A DNA stretch of 64,000 nucleotides from Octopus vulgaris. Its lineage: Eukaryota. Positions 1 through 9,364 of this stretch are shown piece after piece (within the stretch, counting starts at the first letter, position 1; every line of letters starts with the position of its first letter). The notes below the pieces were generated by a model that was not told the DNA's origin, did not search any database, and saw only the letters and a program-made list of their open reading frames with translations. Location of the stretch: the NCBI GenBank assembly GCA_951406725.2, contig OX597814.1, positions 86,986,001 through 87,050,000 on the forward strand, given 5' to 3'. A program made the translations under genes and the position numbers.

Positions 1-84
1 GTGGAAGAGTAATATCTCCATTTTACAACAGGTCAACTGAAACAAATAGACTGATGTGCCTTGCCTAAGATGATATATTCATAT

Positions 85-552
85 ATATTTGAAAAAAAAT
101 GAATAGAAACGGCTTTTCTGATAATTTTTCCATTTTAATTATTAAATGTTTATAACTTTACAAGCGGTGACTCTGATAGGAGCTTCTTGCTTAAAAGCAG
201 TTTATATCCCCATACATATATATATGTGTATGAATATATGTGAATAAATACCCGTGTTTGCATTTCTCTGCATGTATGTATGTGTAAAGTCCTATGTTTT
301 TGTGCGTTTGTGTATGTACATGTATGTCTCTCTATATGTGTTTATGTATGGGTAAATGTATATGTGTGTGTGTTTGTATGTTTGTAATTAAATACTCCCT
401 ATTTAAACAGTGAATAACAAACTCTAAAATATCAGTTTGAAAACTGCTTTTAATGAGAAACTCTTATCAGAGTCACCTCTTGTAAACTTATAAACATCTA
501 ATTATTAAAGTGGAAAAATTATCAGAAAAGCCATTTGTATTCCTTTTTATCA

Positions 553-556
<4 letters not shown>
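85..556. repeat. Imperfect inverted repeat (~115-bp arms, 85-203 and 441-556) around a TA/TG-rich spacer
   Basis: ggcttttctgataatttttccattttaattattaaatgtttataac... is the reverse complement of ...aacttataaacatctaattattaaagtggaaaaattatcagaaaagcc. Confidence 0.75.
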
Positions 557-588
<32 letters not shown>

Positions 589-688
589 ATAGATAGATAA
601 ATACACGCATGTAAATACAAGTGTGTGTGTGTTTATTATCATTCTTTTTATGTCAGCTGTTCTATACTTGCAAGAAGTGTATAGTTCC

Positions 689-875
689 TATCATAAATAG
701 CATGGTTTGTGTTTGTGTCTAAAGTTTGTCCTCATTAGATGTTTCATTGTTCATGATTAACTCTTGCCATCTTGTCTGCTTCTATTGTAGATCATACTGT
801 GAAGTATGCTGTATTGAACATTAAATAAAACCTATCGTAAAGTCATGCCCGTATTTTGTAAATTATCTTACTTCA
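689..875 (+). repeat. 5' LTR of the Gypsy element
   Basis: ta(tg)tcataaatagc...cttacttca, aligns with 4068-4253; contains AATAAA; terminal TG mutated to TA. Confidence 0.93.
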
Positions 876-893
876 ATTTATTTAACATTCAAA

Positions 894-3800
894 ATGGAGC
901 GATTTCTTTGACTGGAGCACTTTGATGCTATCCTTAATCCTCCTGATGCTGCAAAGAACTGCAACCACTGGCACTGAACTTTCAACAATTTTTCATCCTC
1001 CGTTGAAGATCAAAATCTTGATAAACTCCACTTGCTGACAAATTTTGTAGCTCTGTCAGTGTACGAGTATATTGCAGAATGTCCTGATTATGAAACTCTT
1101 GAAAACTCGTATGTTAAACCAAGAAATGAAATAGTCGCTAGGCATATTCTTGCCACTACAAAACAAGATCTGGATCAAACCTTAGACCAGTTTTTACAAA
1201 AACTTAAGGGACTTTCCAAAGAAAGCAACTTTAAAGCTGTTACTGCAGAAAAGAATTGTGAAGAAGCCATTTGAGATGCATTTATCAGTGGTCTAAGCTC
1301 AAATAATATCAAATAGAGACTGTTGGAAAATAAAATTCTTGACTGTCAAAGGGCTTTTAACCTGGCTTGATCTTTTGAAATGTCTGAAAAGCAATCCCTT
1401 ACACAACCCATATTCTGTGGTAGTATCTCTTTGACCAAGAATACTGAATCTGAAGATAAGTCATCTATGACAGTAGCATTGAACTCAAAATGTTTCTTTT
1501 GTGGTTACTCTTGCCATCCTATGCACAGGAGACTACCTACAAAAGATGTGGTAGAAAGGGGCATTTCTTAAAGGTTTGCTAATCTAAGCCTAATTCTACG
1601 TGGCCTGAATTTGTATCTGCCACAGATCCTTAATTGAGTACAGTTATTACTGCAGCTGCACCTACAAGCCTGTCTAAAGCTATTATCACTATTTCTGTCA
1701 ATGATGACTCTATCAAAGCTCATGTTGACACTGGAAGTTCTGAGAGCTACATTTGCTCTGATCTTGTCAAATCCCTGGAACTAAACACTTATCCCTCAAC
1801 GAGAAAGATTTCCATGGCTTCCATGAAACTTTCAAGTGTAACAAAAGGACATTGTTTTGTGCAACTCTGCTACCAAGGTCAAGTCTATGAGAGTGTAAAA
1901 ATTTCCTTGTTACCCGGACTGTGTTCAGATGTTATATTGGGACATGATTTCTTGGACCAGCATGAAGGACTTAAGATTTCTTTCAAAGGAGAAAAGCCTA
2001 CTTTTTCTGAGTGGGATAGCAGCAGCAAAAGTTGAAGCACCATACTTATTTTGCAACCTGTCCCTGGATTGCAAACCAATTGCAACAAAGTCTTGTCATT
2101 TTTCAAAGCCTGATGAACAGTTCATTGACTCTGAAATACAAAAACTGTTATGTGATATTATTGAGCCTTCAAACTCACCCTGGAGAGCTCAGCTTTTGGT
2201 AACAACAAATAAATGACACAAGAAAAGACTCATAGTTAGACAATTAACTGCTTAACTCAGCTTGATGCAAATCCATTGCTGAAAATCAACAAGATGGTTG
2301 AAAGCATATCAAGGTATGAAATGTACAGTACATTAGATCTCTGCAGTGCCTATCATCAGATACCAATTAAGGAAGAAGAGAGACATTTTACAGCTTTCAA
2401 AGCCAGAGGCAAGTTGAACCATTTTAAACAAATTCCTTTTGGGGTCATCAATGGAGTTGCCTGTTTTCAATGTATCATAGATAATATGATTAGAGAAGAG
2501 AAAATCAAGAATACTTTTGCATACTTGGATAATATTACTGTGGAAAGAATCAAGAAGACCATGACAAAAATTTTGCACACTTCCTTGACTGTGCTAAGAT
2601 GTATAACATAACTTTCAATGAAAAGAAGAGCATTATCAGTGCAAAGGAAATCAAGTTACTAGAGTTTCAAGTATCAAAATGAAATATTAAACCTGATCCT
2701 GAGAGATTGCAACTATTGAAGGTACTTGCTGATCCATATGACTCCAAATCTCAAAAAGAGTCATTGACATGTTTTCTTACTACTCATCATGGATTCTAAT
2801 AAAGTTCATCCTCTGATAATAAAACATTCCTCTTACCAGTAAAAGTGAAAAATGCCTTTGAGTATCTGAAAGCAGAAATCACAAAAGCAATTGTGACTAT
2901 TGACTCAACTCTGCCCCTAGTGGTTGTGACGCATGCCTCAGACATAGCTATCGCAGCAACTCTTAATCAAGTGGAAAACCCATTGCTTTTTTCTCAAGAT
3001 TACTGAATCCAAGTGAAAGGAATCACTCATCAACTGAAAAACAGGCTTATGCTATCGTAGAAGCATTATCTTCTTGGCAAGCATTTCAAATTAATCACAG
3101 ATCAAAAGAGTATTTCTTTCATGTTTGACAATGCCCAGACAAACAAAATCAAGAATGATAAAACACAGCGCTGGTGTATTAAACTGTCTTGCTACAGTTA
3201 CAATGTTGTCTATAGATCTGGAACTGATAATCTCACAGCTGATTTGTTATCTTTTGCTTCCTGTTCTGCTTCCACCTCAGGTAGTTCTGACAGACTTAAA
3301 GAAATCCATTCCTCTCTTTGTCATCCAAGAATCTCTAGAATGTTTCACATTGTAAAATCTAAAAACTTAATCCTTCTCCATCAAAGAAGTGAAGCAAATG
3401 ACTGCAAACTGTAACATCTGCTGAGAACTCAAACCTTTCTACCATTCTGATGCTCATTTGATTAAAGCAACACAGCCTTTTGAGAGATTCAGCGTTGACT
3501 TTAAAGGACCTTTGCCTTCTAATTCCCACATGTATTTTCTTACTGCTATTGATGAACACTCTCACTTCCCTTGTCTCGACACAAGTGCTTCAACTATCAA
3601 AAAATGTTTTTGTAAACTTTTCTCCCTCTTTGGTATGCCTTCAGACATTCATTTTGACAGGGGGACAAGTTTCATATCTAATGAACTGAAAGCAATGAAC
3701 ATAGCAAGGAAATTGCTACGAATAGACCTATGGCATTTAACCCCAGTGGAAATGGTCAGGTTGAATGCCTCAATGGAACTCTGTGACACTGGCTCTGAAG

Positions 3801-4050
3801 ACAGCATTGGCAATCACTCAGTGGGAACTGGTTCTGCAAGATTCTCTGCATGCAGTCAGGTCTCTCCTGTGTACAGCGACCAATGAAACGCCTCATGAAA
3901 GACTTTTCCAATATAACCATAAATCTACAACTGGTACAACTCTTCCCAGTTGGCTTCTATCATTGGGTCCTGCTCTGATGAGATGAAATGTGAGAACTTC
4001 TAAATATGAACCACTGGTGGATGAAGTGAAGTTACTGGACTGCAATCCAC
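894..4050 (+). pseudogene. Gypsy gag-pol, broken by many stops and frameshifts
   Basis: Gag start MERFL..., knuckle remnant CFFCGYSCH, protease HVDTGSSESYI, RT SPWRAQL / STLDLCSAYHQI / AYLDNI, RNase H region, integrase PFERFSVDFKGP / CTATNETPHERLF. Confidence 0.92.
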
Positions 4051-4067
4051 TCTATAGGAGGGGTGAA

Positions 4068-4253
4068 TGTCATAAATAGCATGATTGTGTTTGTATCTAA
4101 AGTTTATCCTCATTAGATGTTTCATTGCTCATGATTAACTCTTGCCATCTTGTCTGCTTTTATTTTAGACCTCACTGTGGAGTATGCTGTATTGAATGCT
4201 AAATAAAACCTATCATAAGGTCATGCCCAGCTTTTGTAAATTGTCTTACTTCA
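4068..4253 (+). repeat. 3' LTR of the Gypsy element
   Basis: TG...CA termini, directly after the PPT, followed by TSD GTTCC. Confidence 0.93.
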
Positions 4254-4269
4254 GTTCCATTACTTGTGT

Positions 4270-4900
4270 CCCTTTATCATCTCCATTAAGAATATCAATG
4301 TCCTGAAATCAGTTTTTACCACTTCTACCCATGTCTACCTTGGTCTTCTTCCACAGACTGCAACTTTGATTTCTTGATATTGTTTTACTTATCTGTTTTT
4401 GTCAATATGTATTACATGCTTGTGTCAACACCATTGTCTCTCTTGCATACTATACCTGATTTCTCTTGTACCCAATTTATCTTTCAGCTCATCTGGACCT
4501 TTTTGGTCATACACACTAGCATTACTACATTTCTTCCCCAACCTTTGTACATCCTCTGTATTTAGTGTGAGCAACTCACTACCTTTAGGCATCACAGTTT
4601 GTATGTCAGCAATGCACAATCAACCCTTTGATCAGAGAAAAACGTCTTGTTGCCAGTAGAGATATTAGCTTCCAGAACATTTTTTAAAACCCCTAATCTT
4701 ATTCTGGCTACAATGCTCTCAACTGCTGATTAGATTGCTTAAGTAATCAAAGTTATCAACCACATCTAATAGAGCCTTCTGAGAATTGAAGAATCTATTT
4801 TATGGTGTCCTGACTGCTAGCTACTCTGGTGTATTTACCATAAGCAAATTTTTTATTCAGTCAGCTTACATTTGATTCTTGTAGACTTTTGTTTGCATCC
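4270..4900 (-). mobile_element. Highly decayed RTE-like LINE 3' fragment
   Basis: Minus-strand peptide (EDVQRL...ELKDKLGTREIRYSMQERQWC) resembles the RTE C-terminus at 13600-13800. Confidence 0.45.
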
Positions 4901-5224
4901 ATTAATCTTACTGAATACTGAGCACAGCCATTTCCCTGATGACAACAGAGTCCTGTCTTCTTTCTTTCTTATTGAAACTTTTATCATTACCAACTTTATT
5001 CAGAGGCTGCTTAATTCTAGGATTTGGTTATATGCTTGAAATTTCTTCTGATTGTTCAAAGAAGACTTCAGTAGTAATCAGTAGCAACTTATCCTGAAAA
5101 TCAACAAAATTTGGTATCGTGGTGTTGTTAAATACATGCAGGTAAAGGGTTTAGTCCTATCCCCGAGATGTTCATTTTGACATGGTTACTATATTAAGGA
5201 ATGATGCTTCAGCTTTATCAATAT

Positions 5225-5870
5225 ATTTACAAATCTCTCTCTCTCTAAAGATATGAGATATGTATATGTGCTCTCTTCATTTCTGGTCACTTCAGCCCTG
5301 TAACCATGCATGTGCTTTTCCTAGACTTTTTTCCTTCTCTGGAACTTCCCTTTCTGATGAAGAGCTATGCTCGAAATATAAAAATAAAACCTATGTACAT
5401 GGCTTGCATCACTCTCACAAGCCATTTACAGACATCAGACCTCATATCATAGTCCTCGGTCAAAAGCTTTCTTCAGGTCAGCAAATAATCAACAAATGCT
5501 AGTTATAAAAGCCTGATCTTACCTAAAAACTTCTTTAGCAGTTGTCTCACTATAAAGAGAGTATCAATGGTATCTCCCATCTGGTACAAAGCTAAACTCC
5601 ATCTCATCTCAGTGGATTTGCTTCTAATCAAGAGAGCAAATACCCTTTCTGTTACTTCCAAAATTTAGACAATAAACTTGATGTCTCAGTGGATGTTTCT
5701 TTTGAAGCTTCTGCTTTGCCATAGGTTGTAGTTTTTACACATTTACAAATCTTTCTCTCTTCCAATCACTTCAGCCATGTAACCATACATGTATTTTTAT
5801 GAACTTTTTTCCTTCTCTGGATCTTTTCTTTCTCCACTTTCTGATGAAGAGCTATGCTTGAACAAAGGAA
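5225..5870 (+). mobile_element. Penelope-like remnant with two direct copies of a terminal segment carrying hammerhead-like motifs
   Basis: 5225-5380 and 5740-5865 are homologous; ctgatga-a-gagc-tat-gctc-gaaa at 5354-5376 and a decayed copy at 5841. Confidence 0.55.
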
Positions 5871-6199
5871 AAAAACCCACTTTTTTCCACCTTTACTGAG
5901 CATCAGGCTAATACATTCCATTTGTACATCCTTTTGCTGTGTTGTTATTTGTTATTTTTAATGTTTGATTTGACTATATATATATATATATATATATATA
6001 ATTCATCCAGTCAACTTGTAAGTCCCAGGATTTCAGTAGGAATTGCCTGAAGTGTAAGCAGGAGCCAAAGACTTTCATCCTGGAGTCTAAGATGTTCCCC
6101 AGGTCAAGGGAGTTCTTTAATATCCTTGCCTGTTCTGCTATGCACAGCTTGCAATGTATATGTATGTATGTGTGTGGGTATATATATATATATCTACCT

Positions 6200-7151
6200 G
6201 CAGAGCTGAGTGTAAGTCCGTTAATCTGTTAATTAACGGAGTTAACAGTTTCATTAATGATTTAACTTTTAAGTTAACTTTGAAAATCATTATCGGACTA
6301 ATTAGCTTCCGTTAACCCCAAAATTTCATAAAAACCAGTAAACATTTAAAAGTTTCTATTGTTTTCAGATTGTCTTAGCATCTACTATGATACTCTTATG
6401 TTTTTCTCTGTCACAACATATGAATGAGAAAGGAAGGGGTGATAGATGAATAAGGAAGAAACGAGTGATGGCAAACTGGTAGTGGGATGATGGAAATTCT
6501 CCGGTACAAAAAAAAACAAAAAACAAAATAAAACAGCGTTTCAACTCTGTGTGAGTATATGTGTATGTATGTAAATGTTTGTGTATGCGTGTGCAATGGA
6601 AGTGGGATGGTGAACATTCAACACTGAAAGGAAAAATCAAACAGTGTTTCAACTCTGTGTGAGTATATGTGTGCGTGTTCAAGGGAAGTTTGTGAATATT
6701 TGTGTGTGTCAACCAGCATTCTTTCAATAACAAGCGATGATCAATGTCACATCTCAAAAGACAGCCACTAGATAACATTGACATAATTTTTACCTACAAA
6801 TTTCTTTGTAATCGTAATCTACAGTTTGAAAGGTATTTGTATAAAATTTCATTAAAAAAAAAACCTCTTTTCCAGAAAGTTATGAGGGGGAAATGTCAGG
6901 TCCTGTGAATTTTCCGAAACTCCTCAGAAAATATTCCAACACATCTTTACATACACTCAATTGACAGGATATAAGCAATTATTTGGTGTAAGTTTCATTA
7001 AAAAGTATCCATTTTTCTGGAAGTTATGAGGTAACAAAGTTGGTGGGGTATTAAACTGTAGTTGTACCTTTTACCAATAAAAGTTAACGGATTAACGTTA
7101 ACTTTTTGGTTAACAGATTAATAATTAACAGTTAACTTTTCAATTAATGGT
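6200..7151. mobile_element. Probable non-autonomous DNA transposon (hAT-like MITE) with GTTAAC-rich subterminal repeats
   Basis: Clusters of gttaac/ttaacg motifs at 6200-6320 and 7080-7150; right end appears cut off by the following palindrome. Confidence 0.4.
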
Positions 7152-7481
7152 GCAAAGTTTAGGTTAGTTAAAATATGTTTTTGACATATTTCAACTGCTA
7201 AAACGCAAATACACTGCAGCTACCAAGAAGAAAATATCCCTCTTATGGTAAAATGTGTGAAAACACCCGGTCTGTTCAGTGTTGCCATCTATCAGGAATC
7301 CCAGACATCAATGTTTTGGGTTTATTGACCCTTGTCGACGCGATGTACCCAAGAGAGGCTACTCTAGCTTCATGTATAATTCAGTCAACAACATTGGCTG
7401 AATTATTTTCTCTACGGTAACTGCAGAGTATTTAGCAATTGAAATATGTCACAAACATATTTTAACTAACCTAAATTTTGC
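7152..7481. repeat. Inverted repeat (~50-bp near-perfect arms extending imperfectly to ~85 bp), probably PLE-derived
   Basis: gcaaagtttaggttagttaaaatatgtttttgacatatttcaactgctaaa versus tttagcaattgaaatatgtcacaaacatattttaactaacctaaattttgc. Confidence 0.8.
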
Positions 7482-7511
7482 TTATACACTCCTTAGTGCT
7501 AACATTTCGTT

Positions 7512-7563
<52 letters not shown>

Positions 7564-9364
7564 TTGGATAATGGTGAGATCCATTATCCAATGTTCGGTT
7601 ATCTTCTGTACAATGTGTAAAGTTTGTTCTTATTAATTAATTCCCGCAAAGCCAGTAGCTGGATGATTTGTAAATGTAACATTTGTTGGATAATACTGGA
7701 TGGGGTATAACTCTTACACAATAGATAAGAGCTTTTCTTTCTTCAACTAAAAATTTCAGTAGTCAACATTTTATAATTAATCAGACACCATTTGTAGAAC
7801 ACCCATAAATACCAAAAGCTTTTGACCTGCATAATATTAAGGTTTGTCACTCCTGTTTAAACTACACTCTGCACTACAACAGATAAAAGTATACCCCTAT
7901 GCAGTTGCTATCCCAGACCCAATTTAATCCACCTGTCCACTAAGTTTTTGTTTTCCTTGACAGTAGTTAACAGAGCAGCATTAAGTCCACCAGACAGTAA
8001 TGTGAGGAATTTCATGGAACGCATAACTATTTCAAAAGAATTTTTACTCTTCAGGTCCCGGGAGAGAGCAAGAACTTCACATCTGTCTTACGTCATCTGA
8101 AAACTTTGTGACCATGGAAATGACATGTCAGCTTAACTTGGAGCATATTCAGCAAGCCCCATTCTCGTTAGATTTTAATGCGTAACTGTTGTTTTCATCT
8201 CTCTGAGGAACTATATGTATTGAAACAACTGTTTTCTTTAATAAGAAGATTGAATTCAATATTAATAACATCAATGATGATTAACCTATACAATGAATTG
8301 ATAGAGTTGCTAGAATGTTCTGGGTCTCAGGCTGTAACTTCACATTCTACAGAAATTTATGCTTACCATGTCTTTGGGGTGGCTAAAATAATGGGTAGTG
8401 GATCGGTGAAATTGTTTGAATGTCGGAACAAATGCTGTAAGGTATTTGTCCTGGCTCACTGTAGTCTGTGTTTTTGAGTACCAGACTGAAATCACCAGCA
8501 TTTAGGCCATGTCCCTGGTTTGAGAAAAAGTTTGTTTTTCCTCATACCAGCAAAGCCTTGAAAAAATAAATTGCCATGAAAGCTGTCAATCCTTCTTTGA
8601 CTAGTGGTAAAAAAGAGTTGTTTATACCAAATTTTATATGACAAGACATTTCATCCGCTAATCTACTAATTTCTCTACACACCCATTCCTGAACAATCGT
8701 ATAATGAATATGCATACACACTTGTTTATCTACCTACTACATACTCTCTCTTACATATTTGCTAATATGCAAAAGTAAAAATGCAGAAAGCAAAAGATAT
8801 ATTCAGGCTACTGAAAAGTCTGCTGTTTCACACCCGAAAATGTATATTTAATTTTATCTAGACAATCATCCAAGGAAAACGAGAAGCAATTAAGTTGAAG
8901 GAAAGTATAAATTTTAATTCTCAATTTCAGGAAGCAACTCAACCATTCACAAAGAGTAGGAGCGATATGGGTTTGTAAATTCCTCAGGAAATTTGAAATA
9001 TGAATGATTGTAGAAAGGACATTATTAGGAAGACACTCCTGCCTCCTATTTTGCTATCATTTTTATGAAACGCACATACATACATATGCACACACATATA
9101 TGCATGCACACACACACATACATAAACAAACTAAAAATGCTGATATCAGTCATGTCAGTTCTGATTACTTAGATCTATGATTAAAGAAGTTCCCTCCTTT
9201 TCCTGACACAAGACTATCCTAAGGCATACATTAACCAATTTCCTTTCCGGAAGAAAGTAAATTGTGATTAGAGAAATTTGGCTGCAGCTATTTGTCGCAA
9301 GTTGAACACAAATGGCCTAAAGCTGTCAGCAGGCAAACTGAGTTTTATGTAAGATTCATCGAAT

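Follow-up and report, generated by a model that had tools for sequence, protein, structure and literature searches.

Candidate self-priming of reverse transcription by an LTR segment in Gypsy retrotransposons outside the Tf1/sushi group

In LTR retrotransposons, the 3′ end of the minus-strand primer sets the right end of the LTR. To our knowledge, self-primed reverse transcription has been proven only in the fission-yeast element Tf1, whose primer is 11 nt long, and has been inferred for its chromovirus kin and for a few plant lineages. Excerpts of two reports describe self-priming for Tf1 of S. pombe, Tj1 of S. japonicus and the Tf1/sushi chromoviruses, in which the primer-binding position directly after the 5′ LTR pairs with the element's own LTR and not with a tRNA (PMC4600332; bioRxiv 10.1101/2022.12.06.519325). 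Complementarity of the LTR to the primer-binding site (PBS) has also led to the prediction of self-priming for the plant elements Tcn1 (Gypsy) and TAR (Copia), the latter indicating that the process can occur outside chromoviruses (PMC6317226, in excerpt). Tcn1 is a chromovirus and TAR a Copia element, and both belong to other hosts and lineages than the clade considered here. Bivalve TRIMs and fungal GalEa elements are described as having no tRNA site but internal hairpins (PMC6934838, in excerpt).

The element analyzed here lies in a 64,000-nt stretch of the Octopus vulgaris genome (contig OX597814.1, positions 86,986,001 to 87,050,000 of the forward strand), hereafter called the window. It is a decayed Ty3/Gypsy LTR retrotransposon of 3.6 kb at positions 689–4253, as defined by its LTRs, target-site duplication (TSD), polypurine tract and the order gag-protease-reverse transcriptase (RT)-RNase H-integrase, a domain order that it shares with Tf1/Tf2, Tj1 and the Tf1/sushi elements (Table 1). 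The two LTRs agree at 166 of 186 aligned positions, and Ty3 RT is a distant PDB match. The coding region, which is broken here, forms a single ORF of ∼1200 aa in intact relatives. The leader spans 18 nt (876–893) and begins with A rather than TGG; the candidate primer-binding position within it starts one base (A876) past the CA of the LTR, and the complementary LTR segment ends 46 nt ahead of the end of the 5′ LTR. A preliminary description of this DNA proved accurate when re-checked with regard to its coordinates, the leader without a TGG start, the gag ATG at 894 and the placement of the AATAAA of the 5′ LTR within the paired segment. Its match counts were likewise reproduced, with 14/16 between 877–892 and 814–829 and 15/16 between 877–892 and 4192–4207.

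Table 1. Parts of the Gypsy element and of its candidate priming apparatus, in window coordinates.
Feature	Positions	Strand	Basis
5′ target-site duplication, 5 bp	684..688	+	identical to 4254–4258
5′ LTR, 187 nt; terminal TG changed to TA; end is CA	689..875	+	aligned with 3′ LTR
LTR segment complementary to leader (candidate self-primer); AATAAA end at 824–829	814..829	+	14/16 match
Short hairpin starting directly 3′ of segment; predicted cut-site neighbor	830..843	+	stem analysis, folding
Candidate primer-binding position; complement of LTR segment, not of a tRNA 3′ end	877..892	+	sequence match
Decayed gag-protease-RT-RNase H-integrase frame; many stops and frameshifts	894..4055	+	Pfam; tblastn against intact relative in 9 pieces
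Polypurine tract	4056..4067	+	sequence adjoining 3′ LTR
3′ LTR, 186 nt, TG...CA; second segment copy at 4192–4207 (15/16)	4068..4253	+	LTR alignment
3′ target-site duplication, 5 bp	4254..4258	+	identical to 684–688

By itself, the match in the window copy is modest and only suggestive, because control stretches of real sequence reach the same score and the region folds no better than its shuffles. Dinucleotide shuffles reached 14 matches in 5 of 2000 cases for the 5′ LTR and 15 matches in 0 of 2000 for the 3′ LTR, whereas among 950 real stretches of the repeat-rich window 20 reached 14 and 9 reached 15 (1–2%). The fragment 810–900 folds into the leader–LTR duplex, but no better than shuffled sequences do (z +0.79). 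A DNA search of the host genome with the window family gave 14 matches; among these, the segment could be read in 12 distinct LTR copies, and 7 leaders were recovered. All 7 leaders are of the same kind, and the window copy therefore has not lost a tRNA site that its relatives retain, a deletion that the preliminary description had named among the threats to its reading. Two of the other copies (L005 and L006) show complementarity at 16/16 positions. The proposal that the mismatches stem from CpG decay of an ancestral sequence found no support: at the site in question CG is kept in none of the 12 LTR copies (TG in 9, TA in 2, CA in 1) and in none of the 7 leaders (CA in 6, CT in 1). This skew is one-sided (binomial p 0.02 and 0.03), so that, with CG absent, CpG decay is not needed to account for the mismatches, and symmetrical decay is argued against. 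One further locus (L007; G000:C6, near 124341299–124341541, minus strand) carries a downstream LTR of the window family followed by a leader and gag start and resembles a tandem or recombined element.

The evidence for self-complementarity comes from relatives of the element. Relatives were collected by RT and gag searches of the host genome, from 80 fetched stretches, by a metagenome scan (80 loci kept of 379) and by a scan of genome contigs (8 loci); scans of viral contigs yielded no relative. A screen that is independent of LTR ends was applied to 71 loci with an intact gag start, using a duplex score of at least 10 as the threshold. Of the 24 non-host loci 22 passed, and of the 6 tRNA-site controls none did. 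Host loci gave a mixed picture in this screen, with the leader of one family exceeding the screen length and many copies being decayed.

For a test across families, one representative was taken from each of 21 families (8 from the host, 13 from elsewhere), which were picked after the screen and so do not form a blind sample, and the duplex start was forced to leader positions +1 to +3. A leader–LTR duplex of 11–22 bp scoring at least 10 is present in 20 of the 21 families, with LTR letters that differ among families, and it starts at leader position +2 in 18. For 19 of the 21 leaders, no other LTR equals or exceeds the score of the own LTR; by comparison, 420 cross-family pairings have a median score of 6 and a 95th percentile of 9.25, and six tRNA-site control elements score only 4–5 in the same test. 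Pairs at positions 1–13 are Watson–Crick in 18–21 of the 21 families, those at 14–16 in 11–14 and that at 17 in 5, and several of positions 6–13 show all four pair types. Complementarity between the PBS position and the LTR segment therefore covaries across the 21 families, which was the check that the preliminary description had proposed. Young elements whose LTRs are 99–100% identical (L085, L088, L089 and L092) have the duplex, one compensated pair difference separates L085 from L088, and three further families (L096, L120 and L167) fit the pattern. In most families the gag ATG lies 17–35 nt downstream, leaving no room for another primer site. The predicted leader–LTR duplex is thus a real feature of the whole clade, family-specific and covarying.

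Exceptions are L063, with a score of only 7, L137 and L147, which have no match, and several decayed host copies without the duplex; L072 pairs from +10, as judged by its apparent LTR end. For L097, L116, L138, L154, L165, L166, L210, L217 and L220, the LTR end was taken from the CA ahead of the leader, without a second LTR, and the repeats at L051, L056, L067, L128, L139, L218, L221, L223 and L224 were set aside as other repeats rather than LTRs of the element. A variable site within host family C shows coupling that falls short of significance (Fisher p 0.22; 9 of 12 concordant). In host family B (L049, L052 and L203–L206) the leader is longer, and part of the LTR-complementary sequence recurs in it ∼30 nt ahead of the ATG; the segment of this family carries no poly(A) hexamer.

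The surroundings of the segment were compared in 23 families, a set in which two rows were swapped and three added relative to the 21-family set. Conservation around the end of the segment does not extend beyond about −16 to +4. The final AAA of the segment is found in 21, 22 and 22 of the 23 families at its three positions, the purine-C-C-T directly after it in 20, 20, 16 and 20, and the A and G at −11 and −10 from the segment end in 16 and 19. In 16 of 23 families, a stem of at least 4 bp can be drawn that begins with the base adjoining the segment's 3′ end; the mean is 5.9 (maximum 13 in 500) for shuffles in which the first four bases are left in place and 10.4 (maximum 16) for full shuffles, and later offsets give 6–13. 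A conserved short hairpin after the segment is accordingly a prediction that these controls support, although not overwhelmingly. The hairpin is weakened in the 5′ LTR of the window element and intact at 4208–4221. In 20 of 21 families, folding gives the predicted duplex a mean pair probability of 0.7 or more, the window copy being the exception. Of the 21 families, 13 have a canonical hexamer (AATAAA, ATTAAA or AGTAAA) where the segment ends, 7 of them AATAAA; the remaining 8 keep the duplex, and 3 of these 8 have a hexamer farther downstream.

Positions −13 to −8 of the segment hold an initiator-like motif resembling TCAKTY, which is given as an initiator motif in an excerpt of PMC3601003. 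No TATA box at a fixed distance from the segment was found across families. A start at the A of the initiator-like motif would yield an 11-nt primer like that of Tf1, but pairing often reaches 13–16, so that the motif is no more than a hint. In 9 of 23 families, a splice-acceptor-like motif (pyrimidine tract plus YAG) is found 9–52 nt ahead of the end of the segment, compared with a shuffled mean of 3.5 and a count as high in 1 of 500 shuffles; by eye, such motifs are seen also at 760–790 and 4140–4168 of the window. They could serve a spliced gag RNA ending in the 3′ LTR. A primer formed at a splice junction was considered and dropped as unnecessary, because the leader pairs with the unspliced LTR. 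The ends of two short contigs (L101 and L120) gave no usable RNA end, and Rfam returned for window positions 1–8000 only microsatellite-driven microRNA matches below cut-offs, none of them at the leader.

In order to place the element, its RT piece was used as a query, and 187 homologs were found, many of them single ORFs of ∼1200 aa; the named hosts are gastropods, an octopus, a trematode, rays, a coral, a tunicate, a prawn and a spider. The lack of a chromodomain that had been claimed for the window element extends to nine intact relatives, as Pfam searches at E 0.01 detected neither a chromodomain nor a Tf2-type SH3 domain in any of 8 intact homologs, or in L085. A quick IQ-TREE analysis of RT-RNase H used 43 rows, with L063, L065, L068, L227 and L241 dropped for short coverage and with Mag-, CsRN1- and Gmr1-type elements as the only outgroups. 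In this tree, 19 self-complementary rows and 6 tRNA-site rows fall on opposite sides of a branch with 100% SH-aLRT, and the window copy groups with trematode and snail proteins. The RT phylogeny called for in the preliminary description hence separates the window clade from the tRNA-primed Mag-, CsRN1- and Gmr1-type rows; chromoviruses are absent from the tree, and independence from Tf1/sushi would rest on domain content and not on the tree. The sister group L064/L070/L074 has no recoverable LTR pair. The gag of the clade, which has a double zinc-knuckle, is homologous to that of the tRNA-primed Mag-type family L228 (24% identity, pairwise E 5e-19), and a protein atlas gave only unnamed gag clusters. 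Loci L165–L171, animal-type Gypsy and Gmr1-type elements, come from contigs assigned to bacterial MAGs, where they most likely represent host contamination.

Mag-, CsRN1- and Gmr1-type Gypsy elements from the same genome or data differ from the window clade in having TGG-type primer sites without an LTR complement. An excerpt of PMC3286476 assigns the Mag lineage a tRNA-Leu/Ser/Arg primer site, and no TGG site occurs in the 21 families. The CsRN1 clade is described with a tRNA-Trp primer site and a 4-bp TSD (PMC2582038, in excerpt), whereas the window element has a 5-bp TSD and no tRNA-Trp site, and the CsRN1-type loci L235–L238 fall outside its clade. Judged by host range and size, the clade is probably Cigr-1. 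Elements of that name have LTRs of 245 bp, a single ORF of ∼1210 codons, a gag of the echinoderm type and a length of ∼4.2 kb, a size that presumably fits that of the window clade. Cigr-1 is known from Ciona intestinalis and also from molluscs and annelids, and its host range overlaps that of the window element, with homologs from O. bimaculoides, B. glabrata and a tunicate; the likeness is one of host range and general description, not of Cigr-1 sequence. In supplement 3 of Thomas-Bulle 2018 (PMC6238403), Cigr-1 is recorded for Octopus bimaculoides, with 7 low-copy families, and for Biomphalaria glabrata; that paper, in excerpt, is silent on the primer. The host genome contains about 8 low-copy families of the clade, a number close to these 7, but the Mag C-clade, also low-copy in O. 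bimaculoides (PMC6238403, in excerpt), fits too.

Unlike Tf1/sushi elements, the window clade has no chromodomain in the nine intact relatives and a double zinc-knuckle gag related to that of Mag-type elements, and its duplex of 11–22 bp follows a one-base spacer and often ends in a poly(A) hexamer. In place of a clear three-duplex pretzel, the central duplex (predicted in 20 of 21 families) is followed by a local hairpin (16 of 23), and pairing with PBS-adjacent sequence is inconsistent. In contrast to that of Tf1, its self-priming is a prediction from sequence. No description of self-priming in this clade was found in the literature searched, which was seen in excerpt and included PMC6238403, PMC8556966, PMC2582038, PMC3286476, PMC12440569 and PMC2774666, with key older papers, Repbase and GyDB outside its scope.

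The explanation that we favor, and consider fairly probable, is Tf1-like self-priming of minus-strand DNA by the element's own LTR segment, outside the Tf1/sushi group. We adopt it because the sole known partner of the LTR-end position is the own LTR segment, which tracks the leader through sequence change. The self-priming lineage suspected in the preliminary description is supported by the uniform leader in 7 of 7 copies, by covariation in 21 families and by the lack of a chromodomain in intact relatives. Transcription would start at or shortly before the segment, which would make the segment the 5′ end of R, and the segment would fold back onto the leader. The RNA may be cut at the 3′ end of the segment, after AAA and just where the short hairpin begins, with the element's own RNase H as the probable nuclease, as in Tf1. 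RT would extend the cut 3′ end across the remainder of R and U5, and the strand would jump to the 3′ R, which would end some 15–25 nt past the hexamer borne by the segment. Concealment of the 5′ copy of the poly(A) hexamer by the pairing would be an additional advantage, and segment and leader would stay matched through copying of the primer when the plus strand is made.

The own LTR segment might also prime without being the 5′ end of the RNA, if the primer were derived from the 3′ R copy, from another RNA within the particle or from a small RNA produced by processing, or if it were excised from a longer 5′ leader. All of the sequence evidence fits such a primer equally, because the segment is held in both LTRs; a start at the segment is not backed by a fixed TATA box, and the acceptor-like motifs that 9 of 23 families have upstream of the segment suggest passage of some transcripts through that part of the LTR. 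We nevertheless regard this variant as unlikely, as conservation confined to about −16 to +4, with the initiator-like motif at −13 to −8, is what would be expected for an RNA start there, and Tf1 and Tj1 use the 5′ end (PMC4600332, in excerpt). Markedly less credible is a duplex that is purely regulatory, hiding the 5′ poly(A) signal or the start codon while, for example, an internal tRNA fragment serves as primer. Such a role would suit the 13 of 21 families whose segment ends at a hexamer and the many families in which pairing ends near the gag ATG, but the pairing is kept in the 8 families without a canonical hexamer there, and masking needs no fixed start at +2, yet 18 of 21 families have one. 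Moreover, leader positions 5–16 vary by family in step with the LTR, a change with which a host primer could not keep up. The leader–tRNA comparison suggested in the preliminary description, carried out in part with five host leaders and 8 host tRNA genes (6 isotypes only), gave a longest match of 6 nt. Masking of premature polyadenylation, raised in the same description, is possible as a side role, given the hexamer in 13 of 21 families and its absence there in 8, and leaves the fixed +2 register unexplained. As to a chance match in AT-rich DNA or a private deletion of a normal tRNA site, the 20 of 950 real window stretches that reach 14/16 and the fold z of +0.79 would be in keeping with chance, but the 7 of 7 family leaders, the young elements of other families and the cross-family control refute both, and we assign them next to no probability.

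Self-priming by the LTR segment would make the self-complementarity of this clade a variation on a known mechanism. We see the case as evenly poised for a broader scenario, in which self-priming arose in a pan-animal Gypsy clade (molluscs, flatworms, cnidarians, tunicates, rays and arthropods, as judged by homologous proteins) from a Mag-like ancestor with tRNA priming, and did so independently of Tf1/sushi, with one stretch of 11–16 nt acting as initiator, primer and poly(A) signal and a conserved hairpin marking the cut site. If true, the occurrence of self-priming in a widespread animal clade without a chromodomain would mean either a further origin of self-priming or an age far greater than has been assumed. 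Self-priming elements escape dependence on host tRNAs and silencing by tRNA fragments, and they would be missed or mislabeled by pipelines that demand a tRNA site. The more than 20 families constitute a natural covariation set that points to the exact cut site and offers a test of how RNase H recognizes a self-primer. The window copy is a dead, ordinary member of the clade and a poor experimental subject.

Other repeats lie near the element in the window. At 5354–5376 (plus strand), with a second, degenerate copy near 5841–5863, a CTGATGA-stem-GAAA arrangement recurs in a repeat of ∼480-nt spacing; we take its shape to be that of a hammerhead ribozyme core. Rfam gave no hammerhead match over window positions 1–8000, and the repeat is possibly a Penelope-like remnant. 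Two MITE-like elements are also present, one at 73–187 and 456–570 with inverted arms of 115 nt (84%) and the other at 7152–7202 and 7431–7481 with arms of 51 nt (94%).
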